Of a DNA stretch of 64,000 bases, positions 16,406 through 48,441 are shown piece after piece (the stretch's first letter is position 1; each line of letters begins with the position of its first letter). This stretch comes from Nemertoderma westbladi (lineage: Eukaryota > Animalia > Xenacoelomorpha). Location: contig JAUCBJ010005652.1 of NCBI GenBank assembly GCA_032718475.1, forward strand, positions 1 to 64,000, written 5' to 3'. The translations under genes were made by a program, and so were the position numbers. Below the pieces are notes generated by a model. That model was not told where the DNA came from. It worked only from the letters and a program-made list of their open reading frames with translations, and made no database searches.

Positions 16406-18229
16406 CTACGACCAAGTTTCCATCTGGATTTGGCCACTGATTTCCATTCTTTCCACCATTTTATTCGCAGTTTTTTGGTCCATTTGGCCTTCCTTTTGTA
16501 TAATTGTTTTTATCGTTGCTATGACATCCGCCGGCATCTGCTTAGCACTGCCTGCTATGGCTATGACACAACGCCTATTTATAGCTTCCCATAGGGAGGT
16601 GCTATCTTCCTGTAGTTTGTGCCAAACGTAGCAAACTCTAGCTTGATCCCGTGACCAACAACACGTCAGACTCAAAAGTTTGTCTGCCGCATAGCTAGAA
16701 AGTTCATCGCCGCATAAAAAATCGCATGTTTCTTTGCGATTCCCGAAATACAAACGCAATAAGTCGCAATTAGCTTGTTTCCTAGCGACCAGCGATTGTA
16801 TATATGAACGAAAAGGGGCCAAACCTGTACCGGGACCCACCATAACCAAAGGGGTGGTAGGGGGGCGAGCCATAAAGGTAAACGTTCCATGCCGGACCCG
16901 CACAGGCACAATGGACCCTGGACCGAGGCCGCTCAACCAATGGGAGCAGAGGCCTAGTCTGGGGGCAGCCATGTTGGTTCTGTAGCGAACCACCGCTACC
17001 AGTAGCTGAACTTCGTCTGGGTGCATCGCTAGACTGGAGGCGATTGAGAACGAACGGGGTTGAATGCAAGGAAGCAGGTCAAACAGCTGTTCCAAGGTCA
17101 ACTCGCTGCTGGTTTTAGGGAAATCTTGCAGACACTCTATGGTCCGTCTGCGGGGCCGATAGCAGTAGGTTAGCAGGTCGTCGTAGGCTCCGGTGCTAGT
17201 GAGTTCCTCTAGACGCTCCCGCTCCCTCGGGTCGGTGGCCCAGAGGGCAAGGAGTTCGAAGAAGCTGAACCGCGGGACAGCCGTGATGTCGAGGAACTTC
17301 TGGATAATATCTCGGACAGTGGAGCACTGTCTGAGAACACAGGGGGTCTCGGATGGGGGTCCTGGAGACGGTGGGTGATGGCGGGTGTCTGGGTTTATAG
17401 CATCCCCGTTACGAGAATCAACTCCGATAGCTTCCGACACCACTGTTACACTCACTGTCTCCTCCGCGGATAACTTAGTTATCCGAAATAAAGTGTCGAC
17501 GAACTCGTCTGAGTTGTTCGGTTGGACAGCCAAGACGTCGCCGGGTTCGAAGCCCATATCGGATCCGCTGATATCCAATCGGATGAGTCGGACATCCTGC
17601 CAGTGGTTGGGGTCAGTAAGCCGCACGTTGGATAGTAAAGCTGCCGGGTAGGGATGCTTCTGGTTGTAAACATCCGCCAGTCCCAACTCTTTGTCCCCCC
17701 CATGTCCCGGGTTGAACTCCACCCTGTAAGGGGACGTTAAGGGGACTCCCACGCCCCGAGAGCTGACTCCCAATAGATCCGTCAACGCAGTTACCAGACT
17801 GTCCATCCAGGGTCTGACCACAGCCTCTATCCCGTGGTCGTGTTGGTCGTCTCCCAGGACCAGCGGGAGCAACGGCTCCGCTCCCAGGGTCTCCAACCGA
17901 CGATGGAGTTTCTTAGCGACGAAGTTGTACCGGGAGTAGGATGAGTCCCCGAGTCCCAGAACGGAGTAGCGCAGTTGCGATTGGTGCTGCGTCGTTTTAC
18001 GCATCAGGAAAAGCCAATATCTGGCCATGTTGTCGGGATGGTCGCCCTGTCCGGTAGTGGAACAGATAAATACGACGAGGTTAGCGGATGTTATTGTCGG
18101 GAGAAGATCGTCTAAAGATCCGACTCGACACGGGATTCCGTTACTAGTTAAACGTCGACGTAGTCTGCGAGCCACGTCCTCCGACGTGCCGGTCTGGCTA
18201 CCGTATCCAATGGTTACGATACCTTCCAT
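16406..18229 (-). CDS. NDOR1: NADPH-dependent diflavin oxidoreductase 1 (Tah18 orthologue), single exon, 607 aa
   Basis: Flavodoxin motifs YGSQTGTSEDVA, STTGQGDHPDNM, LGLGDSSY; FAD motif PRSFSIASS; GLCSHWL; NADPH motif MVGPGTGLAPFRS; C-terminal ETWS. Confidence 0.95.
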   Translation of the reverse strand: MEGIVTIGYGSQTGTSEDVARRLRRRLTSNGIPCRVGSLDDLLPTITSANLVVFICSTTGQGDHPDNMARYWLFLMRKTTQHQSQLRYSVLGLGDSSYSRYNFVAKKLHRRLETLGAEPLLPLVLGDDQHDHGIEAVVRPWMDSLVTALTDLLGVSSRGVGVPLTSPYRVEFNPGHGGDKELGLADVYNQKHPYPAALLSNVRLTDPNHWQDVRLIRLDISGSDMGFEPGDVLAVQPNNSDEFVDTLFRITKLSAEETVSVTVVSEAIGVDSRNGDAINPDTRHHPPSPGPPSETPCVLRQCSTVRDIIQKFLDITAVPRFSFFELLALWATDPRERERLEELTSTGAYDDLLTYCYRPRRRTIECLQDFPKTSSELTLEQLFDLLPCIQPRSFSIASSLAMHPDEVQLLVAVVRYRTNMAAPRLGLCSHWLSGLGPGSIVPVRVRHGTFTFMARPPTTPLVMVGPGTGLAPFRSYIQSLVARKQANCDLLRLYFGNRKETCDFLCGDELSSYAADKLLSLTCCWSRDQARVCYVWHKLQEDSTSLWEAINRRCVIAIAGSAKQMPADVIATIKTIIQKEGQMDQKTANKMVERMEISGQIQMETWS

Positions 18230-19346
18230 TGCGACCTACAAACTAGGAGAAGGATAGATTCTTCGACTGTCTTGGACAGTTCAAAGTTGGATAGTTTGAA
18301 TTCAAATTTCTACAGAATTAGAACTTAACAGTACAGAAGAGTCAACGTTTTTGCGCAATTTTAGACCAATGTCAATTTATAAAATAAAGTCTGATTAGCA
18401 CAAAATATTATTATATTGTTATTATAACAGTATTATATTTATTACTGTATCAAGTATAAATAGGAAATCACAGTTTTACCTAACATAAGTCGAAATAGTA
18501 AACACTAATAACTTAGTAGCCGTTTTCTACAAAGTTCGGTTAATTTAGGTCTAATATCCATATCTACGCAATAATGAGTGTCGCTTCTATTACCAGATTA
18601 CCGGTACTGGTAATGTAATGACCGTGTAATGTCTCGTGACTCGTGCAGGTAAAGAATTGATTTCTAATTAATTTATTGTGTGAAACCGAGGTTTCTATTC
18701 AACAAAATAATGACTTCGTAAGGCGGTTTAAAAATCTGAAACTAATAACACTCAATAGAGTTGATCAGATGTTAAAATGCTTCGAAAAAAGATGCTTTGC
18801 AAAATGTTTCGATGAGTATTGGGAAAATATCATTCAATAATAGTTACTTTAGATATTTCACAAAAAATAGAGATACAGAAGTTGTATTTTTTATTACTTT
18901 ATTCTTTTTCATTTAATTCTGTTTGGGATTTTTATAAAATATATTTTATAGTTAATTCCCCTTCCCTTCTAACAGATCAATTAATAAATGTTCCTGGAGG
19001 TTCGAGTAAAGTGATTTAAATGCGTTTATAAATCTTTGCCTTATTCAAATAAGGCAAATATGAATGAAAAGAAAAATGAAAAGATTGTTAAACATATTTT
19101 ATTTGGATTTAGCGAAAATATGGTGGTATTTCTACTTTTGTTCAATCAATAGAAAATTGAAACTTTCGGCCAATATTCGATAGTTTACATAGTTTGAACA
19201 ACCCATATCTGACCTGTTTCTCTATGTACCGGCATACAAAGGAGTTTTAAAATTGAATTAGAAAATGCATTTCTACATTTCTTAACTATAATAAGATAAA
19301 AGGATTAATCTACTACCGTATATAAACCATTACACGGTAAACAATT

Positions 19347-19946
19347 TTAACAGAAGAAAGTACAATAACAAGCAAAAAGCGTTGTTACTATGAGCACCAA
19401 GGCGCCGGAGTATTTAACTGTTTCCAGACCAAAACCCCTCCCGAGATCCCATAGTAAATGTCGCAGACCATTGGCCATTTTGAAACCCAAACAGAAAGTA
19501 AGAAAGAATCGTCCCGAGATAATGAAAGCGATACCCAATGGGTTGTCTCTGAGATTTAGGGATTTAAAGAACTCTATATAGGCGCTAAAATCGTAAGGTA
19601 ACACCGCGTATGTGAACGCTCCGAGGTATAACGCAGATGCGAGAGCGACGCCCGTAAACCGGAACACCAGACTGAATCCGGACGCGTAATTCATCAGTCG
19701 GAAAGCTCCGAAAAATGGAGACACATTTCGCTTAAGTTTATAGTTCTTCTTCCAGAAATCCTGTTGCTCTGCAATGGATGCGGATAGTATCTGTTCGCTG
19801 GTAAAGGATTTATCCGCGCCGCTAGAACCACGGAATAGGATTGGCGAGGTTGAATACCGAGGTTTACTTATTACGGAGCTGTAATACCGATGTTTACTTC
19901 GAGTAATGTTTAGTAGGGAACGGGAGGCTGCAGCCATCAACGCCAT
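19347..19946 (-). CDS. SDHC: Succinate dehydrogenase cytochrome b560 subunit, single exon, divergent
   Basis: Basic mitochondrial presequence, 'FWKKNYKLKRNVSP', 'SLVFRFTG', 'NGLRHLLWDLGRG', three TM helices; first ATG at 19946. Confidence 0.88.
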   Translation of the reverse strand: MALMAAASRSLLNITRSKHRYYSSVISKPRYSTSPILFRGSSGADKSFTSEQILSASIAEQQDFWKKNYKLKRNVSPFFGAFRLMNYASGFSLVFRFTGVALASALYLGAFTYAVLPYDFSAYIEFFKSLNLRDNPLGIAFIISGRFFLTFCLGFKMANGLRHLLWDLGRGFGLETVKYSGALVLIVTTLFACYCTFFC

Positions 19947-20053
19947 TATCAATGATGGGGTTCTTACAGTTTAAAATCAAAAAAATATTGTTTGATATAA
20001 ACCAGCATTGCCAAATCAGTAAATAGCTTTACCTACCAACCAACGGCAACGGG

Positions 20054-22190: not shown

Positions 22191-23416
22191 AATAGGGGTA
22201 TAACGTTTCGCCGTATCCGTATTCGTATGCACTTGCCGTATCCGTATGTACAGTACTTTTTACAAATTCCATATCATTTTACTAACTTGTCTCAAGATGT
22301 TCCAAGAGGTTTCCACTGGCCAAGAGCCACCAAGAGGTTACAATTTCCTCAAAGAGAGACCAAGAACCCTCAAGAGTGACCAACAAAGTTTTGCCTTCTA
22401 TCAAATCAGGAATGCCGAACTTTTTAGAAGGATGATTCTTTCTTCTTGATTGGGCATTGAGATTAAATTAATACACAACATTTTTTTACCACACATTTAC
22501 TGCTATATCAATATCGTCCCATATTGTTTGTGTGTAATAAACTCTCTGTAAAAGCTTTTGCTGAATTGTCCGGTTATTTTTCCTTATTTTTCCCGTAAAA
22601 TACTCTGTAGTTGGTTTACCAGGCATAAAAAGGCCGTGTCCTTGCTGTACTGGTGTTTTAGCGGACATAAAAGCTATTTCTTCTGTATTTGTACTTTAGA
22701 GGACATAATCCGTAATTCCGTGACGTAAAAGCTCGATACTCTTGAAAACAGTGTCGCTACCATGACGACGGCTAGCAGCTGATATTGCCACGTCGACGTT
22801 TCTTTGTTCTCTCGTTGTTCAGGTTGACCAATCAGAGCGTTTGTTGTCTCTGTGTTGGAGGTGTATGGTGGCCCATGAGTATCATAACAAAAAAATATAT
22901 TTATATATTTTTAAATGAAATAAAAAAAACTAATTTTAAAATGCATATGAAAAAAAATTCAAATAAAAAATAAAATGCAATTTAAAATGGATTTTAAAGT
23001 CGATTTCAAAACGATTTTTAAAAGGCATTTTAAAACGCATTCACAACACGCAGCCCATGAGTATCATAACAGACTGTCGTAATGGTAGCTGGCCCAGGAG
23101 TATCATATCGAACTGGCTGAGGATAGGCCTAACATGCGCATGCGCATACGCTACCTAGTTCCCTTGCTGCTAGCTGTAGAGTACCGGTAGTGCACTACTG
23201 ATGCCTACTGTTACTGTGATACAGTACTGGAACTTGACTACAGGACTACTGGTACGGTTCAGCAGTCAGGCAGTATGACTCGTTCATTTCTGTGACCTGA
23301 AGGTGTAGAGTACCGGTAGTTGTACAGTTCGCATTTTTGTAGACTTCCTTTTCAGTATTACATTATTATATTTCAGTATTCCACTGTGTATATAGGCCTA
23401 TGCGTATGTCTTGGAT

Positions 23417-24785
23417 ATGGCAGGAGTTGCGGGACAGAAAGGAAGAAAAACAAACATCGGCGATTTGGAGGCGAGACTGTCAGCGAAACGCACGAAGAGA
23501 GCGCAACAAGGTACTGGTGCTACCGGTAGACTCAAATCCCCGCAATGGCTAACTGTACAAAAATTATCTGAACACTCTGGAGGTAGACTATCTAAATACG
23601 AACCGATTGGGCCTCGCCACTTTGTACCTTTCCAAGCTGACTATGAGGACCTAAGCATCACTAACATAAAGACTGCCTGTGAGGCATACTATGGTGAACC
23701 CGAGGGAAGTTGTGATGTTTTGGCTAGTGAGAGGGGCCCAAGCTGCTCTGACATCGAACAATTGGGATGTAAGAAGATTTACTTTGTCAGGTTTACTGGT
23801 GGTAGTAGTAGACCTAGTACTAGTAGCCAACCTACCACGCCCGGTAGTGATGCTGCTGCAGGTGGTAAAGTGAGTACCGCACTGCAGGATTTAGAACCAA
23901 GTGACGGCGGTAGCTGTACTACTTATTCATCTACCAATATGTTATCTAGGGAGTGGTCTTCACGGGCAGTTGAGTCCGAAGATTTATCCAAAATCTGTAT
24001 CAGTGTCATGCTTAATAAAGGCAGGTAAACTTATAGTAGATGATAAATACGTTGCTGTCACTATATGTCGTGAAGAATTTGATATTGAGCACTCCACTTG
24101 GAATATAGAGAAAGCCGGCAGATACAAGGTGTCCAAAGTACCTTATGCGGAGGGTGGGTTTAGATCTGCCTACATGGCCTACAATTGCGATGGCAATGAA
24201 AAGTTTGTTGTGAAAAAATACAAACCCAGTGTGGAAGCAATGTTAACTGAGGAACTGGGAACAACCGTCGAATATCACACTCGAAAACAGGTACAAATGC
24301 ATACCGTTGCTTCTACAATCACTGATTCATTCTCGAAGTGTGTGAGTAATCTCGACGAAGATTTTGGAGAAACTTTCGTCTACAATAAGGTTTGGTTTGG
24401 GGTGATGGATTCATCTGAGAGGGAATTTATTACAGTAGAGGAGCATGTACCTGGCACATTTATTAAATACATAAACAACTGTGGCACGGTAACAGATACG
24501 AGGGACCAAGACCTCAGCGATTACGAGCTGGATAACTATGATAAGGCGCAGGCGCTCGCCCATTACTCATATATACATACGAAGAAGAAGATAATGCTAT
24601 TAGATATTCAGGGCACAGATCTGCGATTGTATGACCCTGAGATCGCCAGTAGAGAACTAACATATGACGACCAAGAGATATACTTTTGCGCAGGGAATTG
24701 CTCAGTGATCGGTATTGAAACCTTCCTCCTATCCCATAAATGCAACCGTTATTGCAAAATTATGCACCTCCATGAAAACACTTAG
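23417..24785 (+). CDS. Alpha-kinase (eEF2K/MHCK family) with an N-terminal domain of unknown function; predicted exons 23417-23864 + 23950-24785 (427 aa)
   Basis: GGFRSAY, FVVKKY, TVEEHVPGTFIKYINN, LLDIQG, LYDPEI, 'AGNCSVIGIETFLLSHKCNRYC' Zn site; an 85-nt G|GTAAAG...TCTAG|G intron joins the two overlapping ORFs in frame. Confidence 0.85.
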
Positions 24786-25329
24786 TAGGCCTATCATATC
24801 ATTCGTCATGTGACTCATGCAATAGAACTTGCTTATAACTATAACTTGCTTTTTTATTTTAGCATAAGTTCTTTAGTTTTTCATACATTTTAGCCGGCAG
24901 CTAGTTTGGGTTTGGGCTGGGGTTACTAACATTGAATAATACTAATATCTGGTTTGGTAAATTATCTAAATTGCAATGAAATTAATACCGGGGTAACTAA
25001 CCCACGTTCTATTCCATACAGCGAAACTTATACATTTTTGGTTTTACTGTTTTTTTTGTTGGTTTTTTTAGTTTTATTGTTCGCTTTAAGTTTTAACTTT
25101 TTTAGTTGTTAGTTGTAGTAGTTTAGTTGAAATTTAATAATTACATTGAAAATCCATGATTCCAATAGGGTATTCAGCAATCCGGATTATCATTGAAAAT
25201 AACGTGTTAACTGTTAATACAATTTACGTACTAGCCGTCCGGATTGCCAATGAAAATAAATGCCCAATCTGTTACATCCCTCCCTCTATAGCCTTATAAT
25301 TATAATAAATATATATGTTTCTCTTTTAA

Positions 25330-25845
25330 CTATTCTTTAATTTTTTCTTTAAGATAAATGAAGACTTCCTTAGCATCACAACTCTTAATATTAGCGGGTT
25401 CTGGCAATATCTGAGTGCACTTTCTTATAACCTCACAGTCCATAATACGGGTCTTACTATAGTCAGTGATACCTAGTTGCTCTGCAACCAGTTGCAAGTC
25501 ATGTAAATCAAAATCGAGCGAGTATTTCTGGCCACCGTATGTTTCGGGAAAATCAAACATATGATTTGGAATTCCCGTTGGTAATCCTATCTTCTGTGCT
25601 CGAATTCTATGTGAGTTCCAGTTTGACACGAACATATCGCAATCCTTCTGCACAATGGGTATGTAAACATAGGCCATAACAAGCCTGTCATTTGCGTTAT
25701 GTGGATCGTATTGATTCGTAACTAACAGATCTGTAAGTTGATCCTTATAATACATTTCCATGCGTTCGTGAAGATCCCTCCACCATCGTTCAATTTTATT
25801 GGTAGTGGAAGGCCCAAATATTATAGCTTCTGTTGGGTCATCCAT
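25330..25845 (-). pseudogene. IS3EU/integrase-like DDE transposase, C-terminal part only
   Basis: 'GPSTTNKIERWWRDL...FVSNWNSHRIR' integrase-core motif; N-terminal part missing. Confidence 0.8.
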
Positions 25846-26229
25846 AATAATTCATAATAAGGTCATTTATTTACGTATTTAACCTTATGCTGTTATGCAG
25901 TAGGCAGGTAGGCTATCACAGTTCCAGCTATCAGCTGATCAGTCATTATTGCTATTGGCTGATTGGTCATAGTCAGTTTATTTATTTACATAATATTGCT
26001 GTATTGTCTGATTGTATAAGCTATATTTATATTATATCTGTATATTATATTATTTGGATGGAGACACCGCTGTCGCTGTCATAGAAGCATATAAATAAAA
26101 CTGCACATATAATAAAACAGGCAGACAGAATGAAGTTGAACAGTGAATAAAACAAAACGACTTATACTATGGCACTATTGATAATGAAACAATTTATTAC
26201 CGACACACATGTGTAGCCATTGGAAATTT

Positions 26230-26940
26230 CAGTTCAATGACTCCAAGTGCAAGGTCATGCATACATCTATGTTCTAGAAATCCCCAAGCAACGTTTTACA
26301 CAATGAATGGACGGACACTTTTATCGGCAACCGAGGAACGTGATTTTGGAATTACATTTACACCAGACTTGTCCTTCACAGCATCACAGCTCACTGCACA
26401 AAGACTGCAGCCCGCGCCATGCGAGTCGTACATTTAATATGAAGAACTTTTACATATTTGGAAGCTCCGATGTTTACCCTCTGACCCTGTTATACAAATC
26501 CCTTGTTCGGCCTCTCCTTGAATACGACAAAGTTGTTTGTTCGCCATTCCTCCGACATGATAAATATTGAACGTCTTGAACAAGTACAACACCGTGTGGT
26601 CACTCGCCTTGTACAGTTATACTATCGCTGCCTGAGTTGTCATATGAAAACCGACTACTTGCACTCAAACTACCGACATTAATATATCGTCGTGTACTAG
26701 CCGACCTTATAATAACATACAAGTTTATCAACGGGATTGACAAATTTGAGCAGTTTCGTTCCTAACTCCACCAATGCTGACACGCAACAACTTTGCAGAC
26801 AGCGTTGCAAACATTTGGCATCCTTTACCATTACCGGAAAGTGTTGTTAATGCACGTAATACCCTTGGTACTCCATGATTGAGCATATTGAAAAATAGAC
26901 TAGACTGCGAAATGTCCTTTAAAATGAATATATAGTGATA
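26230..26940 (+). mobile_element. Decayed CR1/L2-like LINE 3' fragment inside IS3EU
   Basis: 'ERDFGITFTPDLSF', 'LYKSLVRPLLEY...SPF...LEQVQHR'; multiple frameshifts. Confidence 0.72.
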
Positions 26941-28069
26941 CTCCTGTGCGCCAAGTGGCAGTAGCGAAAGCGATATCTTTCGGATACAACGATATTTTTA
27001 TTAAAATCTAGCTACAGTACCTATTATTTTCATTTTTCAATCCCAATAAACATTTTTTTGTGTTAAATTTTAAAAGTGTTTTTTTATGTTTAATTGTTAT
27101 CCTATCTGTTGTAGTTACTTTACTTTGCACGTTTTATTTCAGCAGTAATATTTTACTTACTGACTTATGCGACATAACTACGGTACCAAATTTATGTTCC
27201 GTATAACTACGTATTGTTGTGTTGTATCCTATAGAGTATTGTATACTTGTCCTTATTAATATGTTTGCCTTTGGTACTGTATGTTGTTGAAGCCCTTGAA
27301 CCTACTGTAAGTATGCTTTGCCGGTTTTTAATTTAATTTTTCTGTAATTTCATTTTTTTCTAAATAATTAATATGCACCAACTGTAAGTACTGTAAATAA
27401 ACTATAATTTTAATTATTTTACTAATTTTACCTGAATACCATTATCCGTATTTTTCTTACAATAGTACATACGCTTATTAGCGTACTTTGCAGATATATG
27501 TTCATTTTATTTTAATCTACTGTACGTGTACGTACATGTGCAAAAATTAATATTTTATTGTTATTCTGGCGATATTAATAAACATAACATACAGCTAGTC
27601 ATTATTCATTCAGATATACCGTATCTGTAGCATAGGCGTATAGGACCACAGTACGTAGTATGTAATAAAGTAGAACGTAGTACATAAATACAAGGACTAG
27701 GCCTACTGAAGTAGTCTTTAATATTCTTTCTATAATTCATATTCTAACATTTGAGTAATTTCAAAAAATGTACACTTTACTTGACAACAAATATTTACAT
27801 GCAGTGTTTCTTAAGTAGTTGTTTCGTAATGTTACACTTTTGGAATAAAAAAACAACGTACCTACTGTACTTGTTGCATTTGTCTTTATTAAGGTTTTCC
27901 GTCTCTGTATCCTTATTTTCATTTCACCCACCCACAACTTTCGTTCGTTTAAGTAACAACTCGGATTAGTGCAGCTGCAGTATTATAGATAACCGAATAA
28001 ACTACAGGTACTGTACAGTATAACAGGCAGATTTTATGTTTTATACCAGTCAGCCCAGTGCAGCTTTGA

Positions 28070-28245
28070 CGAGCCGGTGGAAGATTTTTCACCCGACGCA
28101 GCATTTTGCATTGCACAGAGCCGGCGCAGGATTTTTGCACCCGGCGTGGTTTTGCACAGAGCCGGCGCAGGATTTTTTGCACCTGGCGTGGTTTTGCTCA
28201 GAGCCGGCGCAGGATTTTTGGCACCCGGCGCCGCGTTCGGCGCAG
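28070..28245. repeat. ~40-bp GC-rich tandem repeat, about 4 units
   Basis: GCACAGAGCCGGCGCAGGATTTTTGCACCCGGCGTGGTTTT repeated. Confidence 0.8.
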
Positions 28246-29700
28246 AAAATAAAACTTTTCAATAGGGCATACTGCGAACTGCCATAGTCTTATACAGTTA
28301 GTTATAGTGCTTTTCTACGCTCAGCATACTCAAAGCAAAGAGCTTATTCAGTTACAGGTACCGGTACGCCTAGGGCCTTGCCACAAGTGCCACAACCGCA
28401 GAACCGATACCACTACTGCACTAGCTGACTTCTGCTGTTCTGATACTGTCTAGTGCAGTTCAACAGTAGTGCACTACCGGTACTCTACAGCTGGCAGCAA
28501 GGGAACTAGGTAGCCTGCCGTATGCGCATGCGCGCGCATGCGCATGTTAGGCCTATCCTCTGACAGTTCGATATGATACTCCTGGGCCAGCTACCATTAC
28601 GTCAGTCTGTTATGATACTCATGGGCTGCGTGTTGTGAATGCGTTTTAAAATGCCTTTTAAAAATCGTTTTGAAATCGACTTTAAAATACATTTTAAATT
28701 GCATTTTATTTTTTGTTTGAATTTTTTTCCATATGCATTTTAAAATTCGTTTTTTTATTTCATTTAAAAATATATAAATATATTTTTTTGTTATGATACT
28801 CATGGGCCACCATAGAGGTGTATACAGAAACTCAGTAGTTCAGTGTTATGTTTTTGCCCAGAGCCTAAGAACCGGCTTTTGGCACCTCCGTGTTTTCAGT
28901 TTTTAGTCTTACACTAGTAGGCTTAATTATAAGGACATATATCCGTTATCTGATGTCTGATGTCTGCATACTGCATACTGCAGTACTGCATACACTGCAT
29001 ACTGTGTAACACTGTGCATACTTTTATATTGTTATACTGCTATTTACTGTCAGTTCTTCATAATATGGTTGATGAATTATTATATTTGGAATAACGACAA
29101 ATAACCCCGAAAACCCAATATTCTTGATATACCGAAGGTAAGAGAGAAAGGTTACAGATAAATGATTGCGACCTATGTTGAGTGGTTTGAAGTGAATCTA
29201 ATGTTATTTGATAGACCCTACATGATTCGGTCCGTGTTCCTTTTATATGTGACTAAAATCAGTGAAGATCGGCAGATCAGTGTGCAGTATTGTGCAGCAT
29301 TGTGTATGAGTGAGACTGATAACGAAGCATTTCCTAAAGAATGCGCCATATATGTGAATTGTAACTAAGCCATATCGTTGTGAGTAGTTTAAGTCATAAC
29401 TCTGTTTATATAGATAGAGCGCCACGTCCTAAAGGAACTGTTAATATTTCCCGAAGGTGAATAATATTGTCAGAGATTATATAATACTGTCAGTCGAATA
29501 ATACATTAGGCTTACATAGCAATAAAATTAAGCCGTCGAACCCAATCTCCCGGGTATATCCAGCGGGTGAATGATCGCGCACAGATTGGTTTCGACTAGT
29601 GTAGTTAATTAAATACTTGTCATAGACTAAAGGTGATTTATTATCTAGAAGACATCCTAATTTGGCGGGTTAAACTGCCAAAGGTCTGAAAGCGCGAACA

Positions 29701-29712
29701 ATAACGGATATA
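29701..29712 (+). promoter_or_regulatory. Non-canonical primer-binding site of element 1 (ATAACGGATATA), complementary to LTR positions 28938-28949
   Basis: Directly follows the LTR terminal CA; no TGG; exact reverse complement of TATATCCGTTAT; 11-nt equivalent in element 3 at 55643-55653. Confidence 0.65.
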
Positions 29713-29979
29713 GCTTCTGTATTGCAGTAGGCAATAAAGCTGAAGTACCGGCAACCGGTACCCAGTAGGCCTGACTACCTAACCACCCGGACCGGTACCT
29801 ACAGCAGTACAGCAGTACAGGTACAGCAGTATTATTCGATTTTGATTATTATATACCAGTAGGTCTTAATAATTAATCGGGGACGCCTGGTTTTTATTGG
29901 GATTTTACTTAGGCCTATTTCTGTCAGTTTTATTTGTTTGTAGGCCAGTATTGAACAGAAGGTGTGTAAGCCTGATCAT

Positions 29980-30510
29980 ATTGTACAGACAAGTTGTAGG
30001 CTGAGCTGTTGTCTGATTGCTGTTAAGTCTGAACGGATTGCAGTGTGTGTAGGTCACCTGTCCGATAAAGAACGGTTGGGAAGTTGGGGTAGCCATTGCT
30101 GTAAAGTAAACCCCCAATTAAAGAATAAGTCGTACTACTGGGTTAGAACGCATACTACCTAACTATTTCGGAGTCTGCATGTCCTGTAGTTTATTTAGGC
30201 TTGAGAGTAGTCTGCCATCGTTTGGTCTGTACTTTGTTTGTGTAGTCTGTACAGGTAGCGTATAATATCATTTAGATAATTTGTAGGCTGGATAGTTGTC
30301 TGTCTGTTATTAGGTCTGAACGGATTGCAGTGTGTGTAGAGCCCTTGTCCGATAAAGAACGGTTGGGAAGTTGGGGTAGCCATTGCTGTAAAGTAAACCC
30401 CCAATTAAAGAATAAGTCGTACTACTGGGTTAGAACGCATACTACCTAACTATTTCGGAGTCTGCATGTCCTGTAGTTTATTTAGGCTTGATAGTAGTCT
30501 GTCAGTATTT
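29980..30510 (+). repeat. Tandem duplication (period ~288 bp) in the 5' leader of element 1
   Basis: GTCTGAACGGATTGCAG...TAGTTTATTTAGGCTTGA occurs twice; equivalent at about 56010-56530 in element 3. Confidence 0.9.
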
Positions 30511-31489
30511 AGTCTGCATTTGTTTGAGTAGTTTGTACGCGTAGCGTAATATTTATTATTCAGAGTTTATGCGATTATTCGCAACATTCATTCCCCAAGT
30601 TTGTTCCTACAATAATTGTGTTTGTTATACATACCACTATAGTTAAATTAACCCCGGTACTACACGGGCTGCTTGGCGTAGGGAAAGACTGGTGATTTTG
30701 TGCATCGGTCACTCCAGCAGATGCCGTGGTTCTTTTAGCTGTTCAAGTATATTTAACTACTGATTATCTGTTGTACAAGTACTCGTACCTAATTTAGGGT
30801 TTAGTGTACAGTACTTTCCGAAGTAATTAGTGTAGGCATTATATTTGTGTTGTAAAGTGGTTGATAGGCACGTTCGATTAGCTCTATTAACTTCTAGGTA
30901 GGAACACTCCGTGATACATAACGTAGAACCTATAGCGATACGGCTATAGGTCGTCAGGCGGTGGTATTTTCCTATCTGGACAGCGCAGTGTATTTACTAC
31001 TACTTATTATTTCAAATACCGTAGTACCCTGTCCGTTGTAATAACCAGATTTCTAACCCTTTGTTAGGCTGGTTTGTAGACTTCTTGTAAAATTACCCTG
31101 AAAATTCGTATTTTGTGTTTTTTGTAAATTTTTGTGTTTATTTAGAGATTGTAATCTCACCCGAATTGTATGTAATTTGTAGTATTAAGTAACTTAGGTA
31201 AATTAGAATTATTTGTTTTAGTGTCCTATAAGTAACACTTCACTGAAAGCGCACCGCTTTGTGTAGTGATTACTCCCCAGAAATAATAACATTTATTTCA
31301 AACATTGACAAAACCCATTAAAACGGGTATATATATATTATAAATCAACTCAAACGATTTATAAATAGTAGGCCTGCCATACAACAATTAGGTCTCAATA
31401 TCAGTTGGACTACTGCTTAAATAACGGCAATAAAGTAAGTTAAAGTAACCAAGTAACCCTTAAAATTCAGAAATTCAGTTATTTAAAAT

Positions 31490-31865
31490 AATTGATATAC
31501 CGGTATTTACCATAGGCTTATTATATTTATTTCTATAAATTTTAGGTTGAAATCATACCGGTATTCTGTAATTAATTCTAGTTTGTAATTATACTTATAT
31601 ATATACACTATAAGTGTAAATTGCATACCGGTATTTACGATAGGCCTATTATCTTTATTTCTATAAATTTAGGCTGAAATTATACCGGTACTTGTAATTA
31701 ATTCTAGTCCAGAATTATATATACTACAAACTGTAAGCTGTATACCGGTATTCCCGATAGGCCTATTATATATTTATATATATTTGTGCTAAAATTATAC
31801 CGGTATTCTGAGATAAACCTAGTCTGTAATAATACTTATATATACTATAAGCATACCGGTATTTT
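31490..31865. repeat. ~60-bp periodic array built on ATACCGGTA upstream of gag
   Basis: Seven ATACCGGTA cores here, five at about 57520-57770 in element 3. Confidence 0.8.
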
Positions 31866-31999
31866 AATATATTATATATATATCACGCTACACTGAGTAG
31901 CAGTATCGGTAATTAATTACTAGGCTAGCAGTTAATACTGAATTACTAGACTTGCTTAGACTGTAATATAGCAGTAGGCATCCAACTGTACAAACAAAC

Positions 32000-34900
32000 A
32001 TGACTGCCACAAGGCAAACTCTGTCAGATAGTCTCCTAGAAACAACAGTCTGTTTCTCAGATAGGAGTATAGAGTATCCCAGACCGAGGTCTGAAACCCC
32101 TCCTACTGTAAGAAAGACAACCCCTACAGTAGCTGTGTCAGAACCTAGGTTAGTAGAAGCAATTTCGCAATTCGCGAAGTTAGTGAAGCGCCGTAGGTCT
32201 ATCATCGGTACTCGAGCTCAGGTCAAGCGGGACCAAGAAGCAGCGGAACCGCAACAACCCGCGAGCCAAGAACTTACTTCTCAACGGCCTGATAGCTCCA
32301 GTAGTTCGGATACTGATGAGCGAACGCCCGAATGCGGAGCGAAGATGGTGGATAAGGTTTATGATGAGCGGCCAACCTATGAAGAATCAACCGACACCAC
32401 TTCTTCTCAAGAAGAAAGCGAAGGGACAGCGGAGGGGCCGCGAAAGAGAGATGCCATTGACATCTATCTGTCAGACTATCAACGCTTTGTGGGAGATGAA
32501 GAGTTGAGGAGAAGGCTGGAGGGGCTTAGCCCTAATAGTGAAGGAACCAAGCTTGTGCTGGACGCAATTGATGCGGAAATGTTAGCGGCGAACCAAGCTA
32601 AATTTGATGAACTCCTCCGCATCAATAGAGTTCAAGAAGAGCAAGTAAAGAAAAAACTTATAGAAGACAAAAAGAAAATAGCAGTGACCTTGGCAGAAGC
32701 AGCGGCAAAGGCAAAAGCGGCAGCGGCAGAGGCAAAAGCAGAAGCCGAGGCAAAGGCAAAAGCGGCAGCGGCAGAGGCAAAAGCAGAAGCCGAGGCAAAG
32801 GCAAAAGCGGCAGCGGCAGAGGCAAAAGCGGCAGCGGCAGAGGCAGTGGCAGAAGCCGAACGGAGAGCGACTGAAGAAACCACCCAACTAGAATTGGAAT
32901 ACATTCAGGAGAATCAAGACTGCATAAATAAACAGTTAACAGCTAGTAATATGCAGATGATGAATCGATCTACTCCCAAAAGACGGATATACATCATCTG
33001 AGGAAGGCGATACCACCGATACTGAAGGCAAAGGAAATAGATCTCGTCTAAGTAGACGTAAAAGAACATTCCACCGTCAGAAATTGCCTGATTTGCCTCC
33101 AGCTGTTAGAAGGCAACTAAATAACACCAACTTAGGTAGTACAGAGCCCACAGACCAAATAATTCAAATAGAAAGACTCCCTACTATAGTAGATGAGCCT
33201 GAAATAATTAGGCCTGTTCTTGAAATCACCCCTTCGGTGATAGACACACCTGTGCTCCCTGAAGCTACCTATAAATTCCCTCTGCATAGCACTAAGCTAC
33301 CTGTGCCCCGTAGAACTGCCCAGGAGACAGTTCAGGTCCTGGACCCCGAGCGAAATATTCCAAATTTGTCGCCCGTTGTCCCTCGTCTGCCCGCTACGAC
33401 GTTGGCGGATCCCGTTTCGGCGGTTGATTGGGTAGACGAGAGACGGCGGGGGATGGATATTCTCCTCGGAGAGATGAAGGAGAATCGGATACGCTCCTCC
33501 CAACAGGTCCGAGAGTTGGAAGGGACTGTCCAACATGTAAAGGGAACAGTGAGGGAAAGTAAGTTAGAGTTGCAAGAAGTGCAGCAAATTATCGCGTTAG
33601 AACGCGATAAATTAGTAAACTTACAAAAGGGTATACCACCACCCTCTGTAACAATGTGTCAACCTGTTAGGTCTGAAGTACCACATGCGCAAGGTGTGGA
33701 GCCTACACGCATCTATACTGCTAGCGAAGTAGAAACTCCTATAGTGAACCCTATTAAGGGTAATTATATACCTGTTGATAATGACATTCCCTATAGAACT
33801 GATCATAATCCGAGAATTTTATATACCGATAACTCGATATTAAATAACACGATGGCCCAAGAAAGTTTCACGCGTCAAATGGCTAGAACCGAAGCCCGGC
33901 AAGCGGTAAAGGTGGGAGAGATCGTCAAGTTCAATGGAGATGAGATGAAATGGTTACCTTTTAATGAATATTACAAAGATAACATACAGAACTCTGTACT
34001 GTCTAATGGAGAGAAACTTAGATTCCTCATCGAGTGCTTGGAAGGATCTCCCAAGTCAATGGCGTTAAAATTTATTGGACATCCAGATGGATTAAGACAA
34101 GTTTGGGATACACTAAACATCAGGTATGGTAATAGGACTAACATAGCTAGGTATTTATATGCGAAATTAATGGCGCCCCGAAAGTTTCTTAGCAGCGGGA
34201 TTATAGAGTTTTCCGATGAGATTCAGGAGATCTGTAGACAACTAGATTGGTTAGGTAAGTCTCATGAATACCAGAATTCTATGGTTGTAGGAGCTTTAGC
34301 ATCTACTTTGCCCAAGGGTGGAGTAGGTACACGCTGGGACAAGAAGGTGTTATATATGATGGAACAACAACAACGAGACCCTACCATGGCTGATCTCATG
34401 TCATTCTTAGATGGAGAAGTGAAATTACAGCTCCTAAGACAGTCCAGAGAGAAGACATTGGAAAACAAGGTAAGTGAGAAACCCGTTTCTAGGAGAAGGG
34501 TAACACCAGTATGTTATACAGACGACGGTGAAAGCCAAACTTCTCAAGGAGAGGACAGCGGGAAAGACACTGACAGATCTTATTATGTCAATAAAATGCC
34601 TAAAGATCAGGTAAGTAAATCCAAGTCTCGACCCAATGACAGAAGGGAACCGGTACAAAAAACCCTTCCTACGTTTCCTAAAAGAATTCAGGTGAGAAAG
34701 CCCGAGGAAAGAACAAGTGTGCACCACATAGCACAGGTTAAAGTAAGTAACATCAAGCCGAAATGTGTGCTGTGCGACGGGCCCCACCGTTTAAATGCGT
34801 GTGATAAATTCCTGAGGAAATCACTCGAGGATAGACGTGAAGTCATGTGGGATAAGCGGTTGTGTTATAATTGCCTCAGACGAGGACACGAACGGCGAAC

Positions 34901-36503
34901 CTGTAACTCCGACGCAAGGTGTGCAAAGTGCGGCGCAAAACATCATATCTTGTTGCACACGGAATTCGAACGAAACAGCCCGAGTCAGGTAAGTGAGTCC
35001 GAACTACATGTCCAATTCAGTGATGTGAACGACACTGATCAATCTGAGATGGAAGGATTCTATACGGACGAGTTCTCCGACCAAAACGAATCCTGTTACC
35101 TAATAAACACCACCGCAGTGTATCGAGTACTCGTGCATGAGAAAGACACAGACAGCGACCTCACCCTAACTACTTCAGATCAACAACCATCTTGGAAAGC
35201 GCCAACTTCCAATATAGGAATCCGAGAATTTCCTGTAGTCCAGTTACGGGTCCACGGACCTCAGAAGAGCTATATAGTGAACGCCCTCCTGGACTCCGGT
35301 AGCACAGGAACATTCATCGATAAAGAACTAGCCGAAGTCATCTTTGCTGGACAACCCAAGTTCCGAACCAAGCTAAACATGTCAGGGATCATGCAGGTTT
35401 GGAATTCTACTGTAGCTGCCGACTATTATATAGGTGAGTTGTCCACTCCACAGGATAAACTAGGAGAATACAGTATCAGGTCAGTGAAAATGGTGGCTAT
35501 AAAGAACTTCGCTACTACTCAAGCAGACCTTTATAATTGGGACGAGGATGAGAGCATCCAACATCTTAACATACCTCGATTCCAGACTGATTATCCTGGA
35601 GTGCAAATACTCATCGGCCAAAACGCGCATGAGGCGCTGGAGACATTAGAGAAACGGCCTGCTCAACCGCAGCCACTACAGACCTATGCGGTAAGAACTA
35701 GAGTAGGTTGGTACCTTACTGGACCTTCCCGTAGAACGCTCAGGGAAAGACTGCTTCAAGATCGCGTCTGCCAGGTGAGTGAATGGGAAGATGATACTAG
35801 TGAGGGAGACGACCCAACTGAGGGAACACCACACTCCTCAGATAATGACAATCTTAGCTCCAATGTAGATCAATGGAGATATTGCCCCAAGAAGTTTAAT
35901 CCAACGGACATCGCTTTCAGAGGAGCAACTCCTCAAGAACTGACAGATACTATAGACCGGTTAGGTGAACCCGACTTCCTGAGTAAGGAGAATGAATGGC
36001 CTCCCCATCTTACTCCGACTGAGATTAGACCAGCCAAGGGAGCGGAGAAAGTCGAACCTGAAACCCGGACGGGTGGATCGGAGTTATTTGAACCCGGGAT
36101 AGATCTGTCGGTATTACATGTTGCCAGGGACGACGCCGTGGATCTGGGCCTCCCCTCCGCGAGTGGATCCTTCATGAAGATCAGAGAGAGCGATTGGAGC
36201 TCTGGAACATCACACGTCTCTCAGGGACTCTCACCTCTCCTGCAGAGAGCGACGGACCACTATAGCTCCTGGAATCGGCTTTGTGACGCCGTCATATACT
36301 TTGAGCGATGTTTCTATCGTCACTATTCCAGGACGAAGAGGAAACCTGGAATTGTATTCAGGATGCAGCGACTCAATCACCCAGTCGGTCGTTTGTGTTT
36401 ATCGGAAGGGAATGGAGGACTCTCCGGAAACTGTGGAAGACAAGATTCTCATCCCACGACCACCTCCCTAATCCTTCAAACATCTAGGGACTCCATAACG
36501 TAG
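32000..36503 (+). pseudogene. Gag-protease of element 1 fused to pol remnants; one frameshift near 32984
   Basis: Colinear with the element 3 ORF; 2-nt deletion (AAAAGAC--GGATA vs AAAAGACAGGGATA); RT, most of RNase H and the integrase core are absent. Confidence 0.9.
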
Positions 36504-37616: not shown

Positions 37617-40600
37617 TACTCCAGTCCCTGGCTTTAGACCCCGTACGAATTTTGGGGTGGACGGGGTTTCTCACCGAATCCTAGTTGGACATACATATAT
37701 GGGTGAAAAAAACTTGGGTAGACTTTCTGGTTCCTGGGCGTAAGTTTTTTATAGCCATTTGTTTTGTGCGTCCGTGAGCTGTTCACAATTTCAAAAATTG
37801 TGGCGATTTGAGTATTTACTATGACAGTTTCCAACGTAACATAATAATACACTTTAAAAATTGTGGTGAAAGTGGTAAAACATACCAGCGAATTTTTGCG
37901 TTATACGCCACATAATATACAGTACCTGTTTTTTAATACATTGTGAAAAGATCCAATTATTTCATGTAATAATGTTACCTATACATATTTTCTATGCTGT
38001 GCAAGTAAATACATTGTGTTCTAGAATACTAGCTACTAATTTATAGCTATTAATAAAATTTGTTACATCATCTTAGGTATTTATTTTTAACATCATTTTA
38101 AGTATTTATTTTAAACATAAATCATTAATTTAACATAAAAACAGAAAGCAAAAGTTCTTGGTCTCACCGATAATGTTCGTTAAATGGTATTTTCCGAACT
38201 TCAGGGTCCCCATAAACATAACCATGTAGGCTAATTATTTCTGTTACTGCACATCTTTCGCTATATTTTTCAATAAGAAATATCACAGAATTGTTCTAGA
38301 ACAATTTACAAACACATTATATTAACGCAAATATATGTTATTAAAAAATCATTAAAAAATCATATGTGGCATATAATGCAAAAGTACCAGTAGCTAACAA
38401 AACTGTGTTAGCTACAGTTTCATATTGTTTGATACGGGTATATATATTTTATACGTAAGAAGGCCCGTCATATTTTATTTATAATGTAGAAAGAAGGTGT
38501 TAAAAGTACAGTACATATAATAAATAATATAATTATTTATCTTGTTGAACATCGAACAGTTTTTTTTTCAAATGGGAGACAACAAGGAACTTGTTGGACT
38601 ACAACTTTGCAGAACTACAACATTAATTCGAGATGGTTTGGGACATCAATTGTTTGTGATGCTTCACGGTGTGTTATCTGTCAACAAGTTAGGTTAGGGG
38701 GTTCAGGGGACAATATCACAGTTACCGGAACAACCGAAGGTAGAAAGAAAATACTAGCATCCGCACAAATCCGAAAAGAAAATCGAAAATCCGAAAATCG
38801 CGTAGAAATCTTGCACAATACACTATTCATTCTTGTTCCATAAACGCAGCTCTTCCAAGTCACTTTACATCAAATAACTTTACAGTTGGAGCACGAGCAA
38901 TGGATAATTTCGATCATGAGGAATCCACCCTTTCTGGTCTACAGGGAACTCACGACACCGTTATGGTTTTATTCCAAGAAGCTCCAAGTGTAATTCCAAG
39001 CAAACCAAAACTCTCGACAATCGTTCAGAGTAAATCAGCTAAGCGCACTGGATCCTTACTTCCTTGTCAACATCTCAGATCCTATGATAAACCATCAAAA
39101 TCAGTTATACAAATCCCACCGGATTTTCCAGTTTCTGAAGTGACAACGTGCTCAACAAATAGCGATGTAAGACAAGAGGAGACTGTGATAAGTATGCTAC
39201 AAGCTGTAGGAGGTTTACACAACCAAAACACTGTGTCATGGTCTGGGATTCACGCAATTATCTCAAACGAAGACGTCCCTCTACAACATGTAGGTTTTCT
39301 ACCAATATTACCTTATCCTGTTACTAAGTATGACAGATGAAAAATGAAAAATTTTCAAAGCTTACTTGTCCATCTACAACAACAGGCACTTCCACTTGCA
39401 TGTGATGAAGGAGTCTACCATATTGCTGCTGAAATTCAATTGGTGTCTAACGAATTTAGTGATATTGTGCTTCTAATGGGGTCATTTCATCTTACAAAAA
39501 TACTCCTTGCATGTATTGGAAAGTATGTTGCAGGTAGCGGCCTAGAATCTGTTCTTATTGAAAACAGTGTGTTCGGACCTAACGTTACTGAAAGTGTCTT
39601 AAAGGGTAGCAATTATGTAAGGTCAGTTAAGGGAATGTTTATGCTGGCGGAAGTTGTAGAGCGACTAAAATGGAAATCCTTTCTAAGCAACATACAAGAT
39701 GATGAGCCAGACTTAGTCAATTTAGAAGTGGTAGATAATTTAGTCAATGCCATTCACCTTAAGAAGACAAATGATGCTAAATTACTGTTTAAGGAGCTAA
39801 GTACAAATTCAAAATCTATATTAGAAGAATTTGAAACGTTCTCACATAATGAAGTGGAACAATAATAAAGTGGAACATATCGGTCCTATTAGTGAGGCTA
39901 TACTTGCATGTCATTACCTCACTGGATCTGATGTTACTAGCAAAATAGGCACCAAAAGGGCAGCCCTAAAGGTGCACCCAGAACTCTATTTAAAGAACTT
40001 CGGGCGATGTTTCCCACCTAATAAAGAATCATTCAAACATGCAGAGCAATATTTGGTTAAGGTCATAAAGCCACGATCGACTAGTAAAACGTTTGACAGT
40101 CTTCGATCCGAAATCGTTAGACAAGAAGGTGCTCCAAACTTATTAAACCTTCCTTGTTCAAGTCATTCATTGCAGGGTCATTTGTTGCGCGCCTTCTACA
40201 ATGTTTATTTGTGTACATCAGTATTAAATAGTAACTCGCCCAACCTAGAACCAACAGATTATGGATGGTCTATTAATGAGAATGACTCATCAATCATGCC
40301 CGATCCTTGGAATAATGAACTACCTAAATGGGCTACGATTACTTGCTTCTGCAAGAAGTGCAATACTATGCGATGCAGATGCCGGAAAGATATCGTTTCT
40401 TGCACATCATTTTGCAAATGCAATTTTGAAATGGAGTGCGAAAATATTCCATAATAAGAACATTTTATAATTCATAGCATTTAATTAACATTATATAACA
40501 TTTCATAATAAATTCACTCATTGATCATATCAATATAACTATTTTACTGTGCCCTCGTTTCTTTATAACTCGCTTCGATCGGTTTATGATGAATTGGAGC

Positions 40601-40870
40601 ATCGTAAAACCGTTATATTTGGTTAACTCTGGTAACAACAGCTAAATAATATTTATCATTTGTACTCTTGATTTGGAAAAGTGATGAGGACACAGATGAA
40701 TATTTGTATATTTATGACGTCATAAAATGACGTCATAAAAAACTTAGGCCCAGGAACCTAAAAGTCTACCCAATTTTTTTTTCTTCATTTTTGGATCCCA
40801 AACCCAGTTCAAGTGAGAAACGGCGTCCACCTCGAAATTCCTACGGGACTTAAGGCCAGGGACTGGATTA
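37617..40870 (+). mobile_element. Academ (AcademX-like) DNA transposon, internally deleted
   Basis: TIRs TACTCCAGTCCCTGGC... / ...GCCAGGGACTGGATTA; 3-bp TSD CAT (37614-37616, 40871-40873); empty site seen in element 2 near 50355. Confidence 0.85.
38572..40454 (+). pseudogene. Academ transposase remnants with XPG-like and Cys8 zinc-finger parts
   Basis: DNFDHEESTLSG..THDT, ACDEGVY, MGSFH, HYLTGSDVTSKIGTK, CFCKKC..CRCRK...CTSFCKC; fragmented frames. Confidence 0.82.
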
Positions 40871-41406
40871 CATTGGAATCACCCTAATTCTACCGCTAGC
40901 TTTACATAATGTCACCATAGCAACAACCACGCTAGAATTAGCATTGAGTTAAAAGAACAATAGAAAGCTTGTCCCATTGAATAGCATAGGGAATAAATAG
41001 CGCACTACTAGTATCCAAGGATACATAATAATACAGTGACATTCTGGAAGGCATTGACTAACGGACAAATGGCCCGAATGTGCGTAGTTGTGACCAGTTG
41101 TGTGGTATTTGTGAGTTTATAGGTGAATGTTACTGCTAAAGTGTGTTTACAGTAGCTAGTCGCGATCGTAAAAGTAACCTAACTCTCCAAGGAAAACCTG
41201 AAGTACATCTAAGCCTTTGGGACGGACAGTTGAGTGACTTGTGCCGGTTGTCGTTGTGCGGCTACGTCGTTGGCGAAAGTACAGTGGCGACGACACATCG
41301 GCGCTGAGGATCTCGTACTGTCCGGGGGTTGATTGGGGTAGGCAGCGACGCCCGCTCGCCTAAATATAAACTCATTATAATATGGATAAACTCATATATA
41401 GCAGAT

Positions 41407-42600
41407 ATGACGGAGTTGATAGAAGATGGTCTTGGTATCGGGGAGCGATATACTCTACTTTTACAAGCGTTTGTTGATAGCTTAATACGCGGCGACGTTA
41501 GCCCAACTGCTGCGGAGGACGATGGTCGTTATATCGAACCGCCAATGTCCCAAGAGCAGCTCGCGCGAGTTGGACTATAGAAAATTCGCTGCTCGATATA
41601 CGCAGCGTAATGGTACGTATATGGGCTTCTTAACTACTGATCATCCTATCGATTTACGCAATACGGACTATGTCGACTATATATCCTGCCCAGCGGAGTC
41701 GGAACCATAAATTGAAATTCGAATGCGAAAATTCTATTCGAAATCGGCTCGAAAGAAAAGGCATTAAAGAAACAAATAAACGCGGTAACTCCAACATATA
41801 TTTGGAATTCTTGATAGAAGCATTGTAACAACAAATAAATATCATCCGCGTTTCCCCTACCAGACGTGCGTCTTTGGTATTATTACGATAAATGCCCTAG
41901 ACCCAACTAATAAACGGAAAGACATAAACATCCACGGAAACGTTGCGTTAAACACAGTTGTGCTCGTTATATTTACTGGAGTTTCGAGCGAAACTTGTTT
42001 GACGTATCACCTATGCTCACTCGGCTCGAACGATCCTGGAGTAAACCTACGATCAGAGTCCCGGAATACTCGGTCAAACCTCCTCATTCCTTAGTTGGAC
42101 CTCAGACCTGCGATCCTGGTGGTGTCGCGGATCCTCGCGGACTGTATTCACTGTTCAAAGATCTAGTGCTACCCTAACAATTAATCGGTAACACTCAGAC
42201 AGTGATTTCTAGCTAGCCGCCCATCTTACCTAGCCGGATTGTGACGCGGACACCTAATATCACTATCCAACCGTATGGTCGTCCCCGTTTAACGCGATAC
42301 AACCCTTCATCAAGGTGAAGGAGAGCGTTGTACGACACGAGTTAAACGCTATTCTATAACGATCAAAAAAGAAACCTGCGTTTGTTCAGATAAACGTAAG
42401 TTATAACAGTAAGTCCAATCGATAAACGAATTGGCCTTATCTCAATTCGATTGGGAAATCCAGAATCTCTAAGAAGTTATCGAACTTGGACGATCCTATT
42501 CTCTGCGAGAGTTTTTGGATGAACGTATCCAGCTACGAGCGGAGGAAAATCAGCTCGAGGAGAAGCATATCGAAACGGCAGATACCTCGACCACAATCCT
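41407..42600 (+). pseudogene. Disrupted 3' accessory ORF cluster of element 1, function unknown
   Basis: Homologous to 48442-49904 on the minus strand (EDDGRYIEP, ELDYRKF, NALDPTN, YSLFKDLVLP, EENQLEEKHI). Confidence 0.7.
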
Positions 42601-42816
42601 ACACCTTCTGATGCAATCATATTGCACCCTTCACCCAGGAGTTATGGCCCTCCTAGTAAAGTGGCTCCCCCCAAAGAGAAAAAGACTCTTGCTAGCCTCA
42701 AAAAACTGCGTAAACGCCGTCTGCGTAAGAAAGACTAACTGTTTAGAGTATCTTTATGTTTTAGAAACTGTGATTTTTATATTTTATAGACTGAAAATCC
42801 CATTTTCTGGGAGCGG

Positions 42817-43998: not shown

Positions 43999-44068
43999 CT
44001 CTCTCACAGAGATATTTACTTATTTTTATAATGTATTTGAAAACGTTGCCATCCCGCAGTTCCACGCT

Positions 44069-48273: not shown

Positions 48274-48441
48274 CCGCTCCCAGAAAATGGGATTTAATTC
48301 TATAAAATATAAAAATCACAGTTTCTAAAATATAAAAATACTCTAAACAGTTAGTCTTTCTTTCGCGAACGGGGTTTACGCAGTTTTTTGATGCTAGCAA
48401 GAGTCCTTTTCTCTTTGGGGCCAGCCACTTTACTAGGAGGG

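Follow-up and report, generated by a model that had tools for sequence, protein, structure and literature searches.

Pairing between the LTR and the adjoining primer-binding position points to probable Tf1-like self-priming in a BEL/Pao retrotransposon family and its distant relatives

The BEL/Pao retrotransposons in the window (the whole stretch of 64,000 nucleotides analyzed here) probably prime reverse transcription as Tf1 does, that is, with RNA derived from their own LTR instead of a host tRNA; we take this to be the best reading of the sequences and give it a probability of roughly 0.8. The observations behind it are the complementarity between a motif in the LTR and the nucleotides that adjoin the LTR, the position and polarity of this pairing, the absence of any site of the CCA type, and pairing that is specific to the family in 19 families of distant relatives. 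An earlier note on this DNA had proposed self-priming from the window elements alone; the relatives support that proposal, as each of the 19 families pairs its own site with its own LTR, in different letters, and almost never with a foreign LTR.

Self-comparison and searches for LTR ends identified three related LTR elements in the 64-kb window (Table 1). Element 1 is complete in the window, whereas elements 2 and 3 are represented by one LTR each. The 5′ and 3′ LTRs of element 1 agree at 1181 positions and differ by a single mismatch and 15 extra nucleotides, so this copy inserted recently; it has since received two younger inserts, and because it is missing the reverse transcriptase, most of the RNase H and the integrase core, it is non-autonomous. 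Of element 2, which is on the minus strand, the window contains the 3′ LTR and late pol only; element 3 sits within that pol.

Table 1. Coordinates of the elements and of the features discussed in the text (positions in the window).
Feature	Position	Strand	Remarks
Element 1	22547–43998	+	TG...CA LTRs; 5-bp target duplication CTCTC at 22542–22546 and 43999–44003
Element 1, 5′ LTR	22547–29700	+	TG...CA; split by a 5.9-kb insert at 22867–28814
Conserved island, element 1 vs element 3	28902–28949	+	Ends in the motif; holds both putative transcription starts
Element 1, LTR motif (predicted self-primer)	28938–28949	+
Splice-donor-like site, AAG/GTAAG	29138–29144	+	Downstream of the motif; same place in all three LTR types; candidate only
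ATTAAA, candidate polyadenylation signal	29608–29613	+	93 nt from the LTR end in each of the three LTR types; putative function
Element 1, predicted primer-binding position	29701–29712	+	Zero spacer, 12 nt
Element 1, gag-protease region	31967–36503	+	Two frames; DUF1759
Element 1, purine-rich tract before the 3′ LTR	42809–42816	+
Element 1, 3′ LTR	42817–43998	+	1182 nt; motif copy at 43251–43262
Element 2, 3′ LTR	47062–48273	−	About 75% identical to the other LTRs over R-U5
Element 2, pol remnant	51444–54465	−	Peptidase_A17, DUF5641; interrupted by element 3
Element 3, 5′ LTR	54466–55642	+	1177 nt; upstream third unlike element 1
Element 3, LTR motif (predicted self-primer)	54893–54903	+
Element 3, predicted primer-binding position	55643–55653	+	Zero spacer, 11 nt
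Element 3, gag-pol	57874–64000	+	Frame change near the start of the reverse transcriptase; extends past the window end

The assignment to BEL/Pao made in the earlier note is borne out by Pfam matches to DUF1759, Peptidase_A17 and DUF5641. The order of gag, protease, reverse transcriptase, RNase H and integrase is colinear between the window element and a full-length relative, and the best 120 homologues of the reverse transcriptase-RNase H region (37–45% identity; from cnidarians, echinoderms, hemichordates, fish and further sources) all carry the Pao domain, PF05380. The gag-pol of element 3 also contains what we take to be the YMDD motif and the three acidic motifs of RNase H. Judged by these domains, the window elements are BEL/Pao (Belpaoviridae). 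They share with the ICTV description of this family a metazoan host, the gene order, an LTR length within 0.2–1.2 kb and a purine tract before the 3′ LTR, and they exceed its 4–10 kb range, with a 2.2-kb leader and an extra 3′ region (PMC8742986). The same description gives an 18-nt site complementary to the 3′ end of a host tRNA, tRNA-Arg or tRNA-Gly (PMC8742986), and here the window elements differ, having no such site; the tRNA site is a described trait of the Belpaoviridae, not a phylogenetic criterion.

What adjoins the 5′ LTR instead is a complement of the LTR itself. The 12 nt at 29701–29712 in element 1 are the exact reverse complement of 28938–28949, and the 11 nt at 55643–55653 in element 3 are that of 54893–54903 (the twelfth base is mismatched); both matches are as the earlier note had given them. 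The two 5′ LTRs end in CA (...GCGAACA at 29700 in element 1; at 55642 in element 3), and in both elements the 3′ end of the motif would be paired to the base immediately behind the LTR, with no spacer, which agrees with the primer polarity previously claimed. It also proved correct that no TGG, the complement of the tRNA CCA end, stands at the 5′ LTR end: the first TGG lies 188 nt downstream in element 1 and 267 nt downstream in element 3. Scans of the window for tRNAs and Rfam families returned nothing, as did a scan of the LTR and leader of element 3 against Rfam at permissive settings. Elements 1 and 3 are 94% identical over the part of the LTR that holds the motif, so they count as one observation. 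The LTR of element 2 has the diverged motif where it had been described (47851–47861, minus strand), identical to the element 1 motif at eight of 11 positions.

Four public sequencing runs, all of them consisting of contigs, were used to follow this arrangement beyond the window. Contigs from two studies of the same organism and from a second organism span the junction between LTR and site of element 3; those of the second organism (run X5) cross it with 3 and 6 differences. In runs X1 and X2, compared with window positions 46900–48000 and 55603–55672, the LTR is matched by thousands of contigs, which shows the family to be highly abundant and varied within this species. For the element 2 LTR, no variant falls within the motif among the 40 variant rows listed of 211, and, in favor of self-priming, five of the 15 contig joints listed break at 47850, one base past the motif. 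One junction contig may speak against self-priming, as it has as many differences as the LTR end of element 2 alone would give; it could represent an element 2-like LTR end with an unchanged site.

Shuffling the LTR suggests that a chance match of this kind has a probability of about 6 × 10−4 to 1.4 × 10−3: among 5000 dinucleotide shuffles of the LTR of element 3, three contain the 11-mer, a number that rises to seven when offsets of 0–3 are allowed. Ordinary internal positions reach a match of at least 11 nt at a similarly low count, 5 of 8200 in element 3 and 4 of 13,040 in element 1. The motif also ends an island of about 45 nt that is conserved between elements 1 and 3 and is flanked on both sides by poorly conserved sequence, about 55 nt of it downstream. 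The earlier note had placed the motif about 30 nt inside the point at which the LTR turns from variable to conserved and had expected the U3/R boundary there. The first part stands, as elements 1 and 3 become similar at 28902, which is 36 nt ahead of the motif. However, the island is short, and the similarity between elements 1 and 2 extends well upstream of 28902, so this point taken by itself does not map the U3/R boundary.

Fold predictions give the duplex of motif and site −12.0 kcal/mol for 11 bp and −13.3 kcal/mol for 12 bp. It is part of the minimum-energy fold, with pair probabilities of 0.67–1.0, when the RNA starts at the motif and 60–120 nt of leader are included, and its pair probability is 0 once 250 nt of leader are folded with it. 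A stem between U5 and leader like that of Tf1 is predicted with 5 bp in element 3 and is absent from the prediction for element 1.

The family-level evidence comes from distant BEL/Pao relatives in metagenomes, for which we used the best 80 of 538 confirmed loci, at about 40% protein identity; these group into 57 families at 85% nucleotide identity. We examined 21 of the 57 (the other 36 had too little LTR sequence or were unclear), and 19 of the 21 have a site of 10–15 nt that pairs with their own LTR. The LTR end was fixed by a direct repeat in 11 families and chosen by scanning in 10. In the direct-repeat group, 10 of 11 families pair 10–15 nt with their own LTR, starting 0–4 nt after it, eight of them across a GT-AG junction that has a typical donor and an acceptor rich in pyrimidines, and two contiguously; two of these ten matches were adjusted, in that the LTR end of L016 was moved by eye from 101 to 91 and L057 needs an offset of 4. 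The eleventh family of this group is the one tRNA-like case, the L061/L077 family, in which L061 has a TGG-type site. Nine scan-chosen families have a match (eight spliced, one contiguous), and in the tenth, L029, no credible match was identified. Overall, in 16 of the 19 families the LTR offers a pairing partner only where it is joined across a predicted splice junction.

Pairings are specific to the family. Once elements 1 and 3 are included, own pairings score 10–15 nt in 21 of 22 cases, whereas foreign pairings come to 10 nt in only 7 of 460, two of these being between sister families with the same primer; the site of element 1 reaches 4–7 nt with all 20 other LTRs. A control for the scanning step, which covered seven of the nine scan-chosen families, gave 10–13 nt for own pairings and at most 7 nt in 42 foreign ones. 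Sister families alter motif and site together (e.g., L041/L042 and L034/L062); motif and site thus change together at the family level in these relatives. The families are related and come from few host samples, so they do not represent 19 independent origins. In two sets of sister families the LTR intron is present in one member and absent from another exactly at the primer joint (L041/L042, with LTRs of 401 and 288 nt; L027/L028/L048, with LTRs of 415 and 177 nt), a pattern that suggests repeated precise loss or gain of the intron. One contig carries L043 and L044 in tandem, as head-to-tail BEL/Pao copies that repeat every 6138 nt.

The sites have further features in common. The match is 11 nt long in 11 of 21 cases, 12 nt in four, 10 nt in three, 13 nt in two and 15 nt in one, and in all 21 the paired run begins 0–4 nt from the LTR end. 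On the primer side, the last nucleotide is a pyrimidine in 21 of 21 rows and the second-last an A in 20 (these rows take in element 1 and the element 2 motif and leave out element 3). The window family and L052 have a site that begins ATAAC. The window family differs from most relatives in its contiguous motif and zero spacer, and its loop is longer, 736–789 nt versus 43–360 nt; the spliced primers of the relatives have only 4–9 nt on the upstream side of the junction. An initiator or TATA element at a fixed distance from the motif gave no clear signal across families; a purine-G-W-pyrimidine motif is slightly commoner 15–19 nt before the primer end (9 counts versus 2–7 in other bins), which is too weak to use.

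In a quick-search tree of 75 reverse transcriptase-RNase H rows (22 redundant loci and short matches were excluded), spliced and contiguous forms are spread through one large group; L042, whose contig ends inside the LTR, carries a wrong tRNA-type label in this tree. Element 3 is on a long branch and its placement among the relatives is uncertain, so the evidence from the relatives transfers to the window family by analogy. A splice-junction primer was also considered for the window family itself and rejected, as junction matches are no better than the contiguous match: the best in element 1 is 11 nt (equaled in 4 of 300 shuffles), with an offset of 1 and a weak donor, and overlaps the motif, and the best in element 3 is 8 nt (111 of 300 shuffles). 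A search with the LTR-end pattern gave 0 matches in viral contigs and 0 in metagenome contigs, and a protein-based search of viral contigs gave 88 pattern matches and no relatives.

By analogy with Tf1, self-priming in the window family would proceed as follows. The RNA would start at the motif or some tens of nucleotides upstream, and the motif would fold back and pair with the site behind the LTR, closing a loop of about 740 nt; the RNA would then be cut just 3′ of the motif, probably by the RNase H of the element as in Tf1, and the freed 3′ end would be extended into U5, beginning minus-strand DNA synthesis. Plus-strand synthesis would later copy the primer back into the site, which would keep motif and site matched. 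In most relatives, the primer would have to be assembled beforehand by splicing of the LTR intron; this intron would lie 5′ of the cut, and the copy in the 3′ LTR would restore it. Should an RNA that is spliced in its 3′ LTR as well be copied, the product would be an intron-free LTR like that of the window family, and we infer that the sister pairs L041/L042 and L027/L048 fit intron loss by this route.

Two transcription starts, 28938–28939 and about 28905, appear about equally probable from the sequences. The fixed length of 11 nt favors a start at 28938–28939, and the small upstream share of the spliced primers together with the island from 28902 favors a start about 35 nt earlier and a longer primer; because the spliced partners have so little sequence upstream of the junction, the RNA may start further upstream than the motif. 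Contrary to the view taken in the earlier note, a start some tens of nucleotides from the motif is compatible with self-priming.

The pairing could instead be real and selected but structural, acting in RNA circularization, packaging or a translation switch, with something else serving as the actual primer. LTR elements often have long-range pairings close to their primer sites, a duplex of only about −12 kcal/mol has to compete with leader folds, and, because the 3′ LTR carries the motif as well, the two ends of the RNA could be joined by the pairing. However, a run of about 11 nt, mostly with the A-pyrimidine end, stands next to the LTR end in all 21 cases; it takes up the one position available to a primer, with no other site nearby. 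We therefore regard a purely structural role as unlikely. The relatives also bear on the possibility that a host RNA (a tRNA half, an internal tRNA stretch or another small RNA) is the primer and the LTR motif a by-product or mimic. ICTV gives the Belpaoviridae as tRNA-primed (PMC8742986), half-tRNA priming without TGG exists in copia lineages according to the accessible text of PMC6317226, and the related L061/L077 family has its TGG-type site; nevertheless, the sites of the 19 families differ in sequence and each matches its own LTR, mostly only across a splice junction, and a fixed set of host RNAs would not track them. The window site, for its part, matches the LTR of no other family beyond 7 nt, and priming by a host RNA is in our judgment quite improbable.

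We give hardly any weight to the idea that the match in the window family is due to chance or is the functionless leftover of a short inverted duplication. It would gain from the fact that elements 1 and 3 are one observation, from the unplaced position of the window family in the tree, and from the three of 11 motif positions at which element 2 differs; it is opposed by the low frequency of such matches on shuffling, by the local conservation around the motif, and by a length, position and A-pyrimidine end that are those of 19 other families.

Self-priming by the LTR is itself a known mechanism. Tf1 and Tf2 of Schizosaccharomyces pombe, Tj1 of S. japonicus and the Tf1/sushi group of Ty3/gypsy are described, in the available text of the sources, as having an 11-nt site next to the 5′ LTR that is complementary to their own LTR-derived RNA, and no tRNA site (PMC7175516, PMC4600332, PMC5341516); for Tf1, these partial sources give a primer length of 11 nt (PMC7175516) and a site that begins ATAAC (PMC11042837). 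As far as this text goes, the window family resembles the Tf1 group in its perfect complement of about 11 nt adjoining the 5′ LTR, its primer polarity and its ATAAC start. The differences are that the window family is BEL/Pao, not a Ty3/gypsy chromovirus, and so no member of Tf1/sushi; that its loop spans about 740 nt in a 1.2-kb LTR; and that the start site and RNase H cut have been demonstrated for Tf1 and are predicted for the window family. Most of the BEL/Pao relatives would, in addition, need splicing to make the primer, which the accessible text does not describe for Tf1.

According to the portions of the literature available, Tf1/sushi, Tj1, Tcn1 and the TAR copia lineage have been reported to self-prime (PMC6317226, PMC4600332, PMC7175516, PMC5341516), and in the Tcn1 chromoviruses and the plant TAR/Houba/Osr-1 copia elements self-priming is predicted from complementarity alone (PMC6317226). 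These are like the window family in that self-priming is read from sequence, with the trait in more than one superfamily; on the same partial account they are Ty3/gypsy and Ty1/copia elements of plants and fungi, and the window family is BEL/Pao. In BEL/Pao, described as tRNA-primed, we found self-priming or a spliced primer nowhere in print, in agreement with the earlier note, in a literature search that drew in part on partial texts and had most subscription papers, Repbase entries and supplements outside its scope. The accessible text of a BEL/Pao survey (PMC3118150) does not use the terms primer, PBS, tRNA or self, that of the Sinbad paper (PMC554778) uses primer for PCR primers only, and the available portions of PMC3601003, PMC5443660, PMC5445492 and PMC8220671 do not link self-priming to BEL/Pao.

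Within BEL/Pao, Cer7 of C. elegans may be a precedent for priming that does not depend on the host, as it reportedly encodes its own tRNA-like primer RNA; there, a separate primer gene, not a fold-back of the LTR, would supply the primer.

If self-priming is correct, a third major LTR superfamily also self-primes, and does so in an animal family that is high in copy number and was mobile recently. Tf1 and these elements would probably have come to the same primer length and end independently, which would point to a constraint of the reverse transcriptase/RNase H itself. Such elements would presumably be freed from tRNA supply and from silencing by tRNA fragments directed at the primer site, and self-priming would explain the absence of sites when such elements are annotated on the basis of tRNAs. 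In the spliced relatives, splicing would be an on-switch for replication, with the intron-free window family as a natural comparison. Whether events followed the broader course that these data allow is, in our estimate, an even bet: a large branch of BEL/Pao would have lost tRNA priming long ago and independently arrived at a Tf1-like 11-nt self-primer with an A-pyrimidine end; in most families the host spliceosome would assemble this primer across the LTR intron, making replication dependent on splicing, and families of the window type would have lost the intron through a copied spliced RNA, leaving the primer hard-wired.

Several other features of the window elements were observed. The leaders of elements 1 and 3 (29713–31999 and 55654–57906) extend about 2.2 kb before gag, are 92% alike and hold a 288-nt tandem duplication and shorter repeats; the leader and the donor-like site at 29138 together suggest a spliced mRNA that would skip the primer site. 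Amid an R-U5 that is 75% identical, blocks of 25–35 nt are identical in all three LTR types (29300–29700, 47062–47500 and 55240–55642); they have no Rfam match. Between the integrase and the 3′ LTR, elements 1 and 2 share a decayed extra reading frame (41286–42738, plus strand, and 48352–50022, minus strand; about 80% nucleotide identity) with a basic tail just before the purine tract and with no Pfam match.

The insert at 22867–28814 in the 5′ LTR of element 1 resembles a DNA transposon, with terminal inverted repeats of about 340 nt (93% alike), a 9-bp target duplication, an alpha-kinase ORF (23895–24785) and a fragment of an integrase core (25330–25851, minus strand); it is younger than element 1, whose LTRs differ at one base. 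A second insert in element 1, of 3.2 kb (37617–40870), has inverted ends of about 136 nt and broken ORFs (38744–40454) that end in a cysteine-rich stretch; the three pieces scanned gave no Pfam match. Host genes occupy long unbroken frames at 2985–5858, 16406–18235 and 19347–19970 and encode a protein with FHA and PX domains, NADPH-dependent diflavin oxidoreductase 1 and a membrane subunit of succinate dehydrogenase, respectively. The diflavin oxidoreductase is 36–44% identical to its best 120 homologues, nearly all of them animal, and this, with the unbroken frames, identifies the host as a divergent, intron-poor animal. Tandem arrays are present at 640–2037, 6009–8457 and 9267–10027, the last with a 50-nt unit whose copies are 100% identical.
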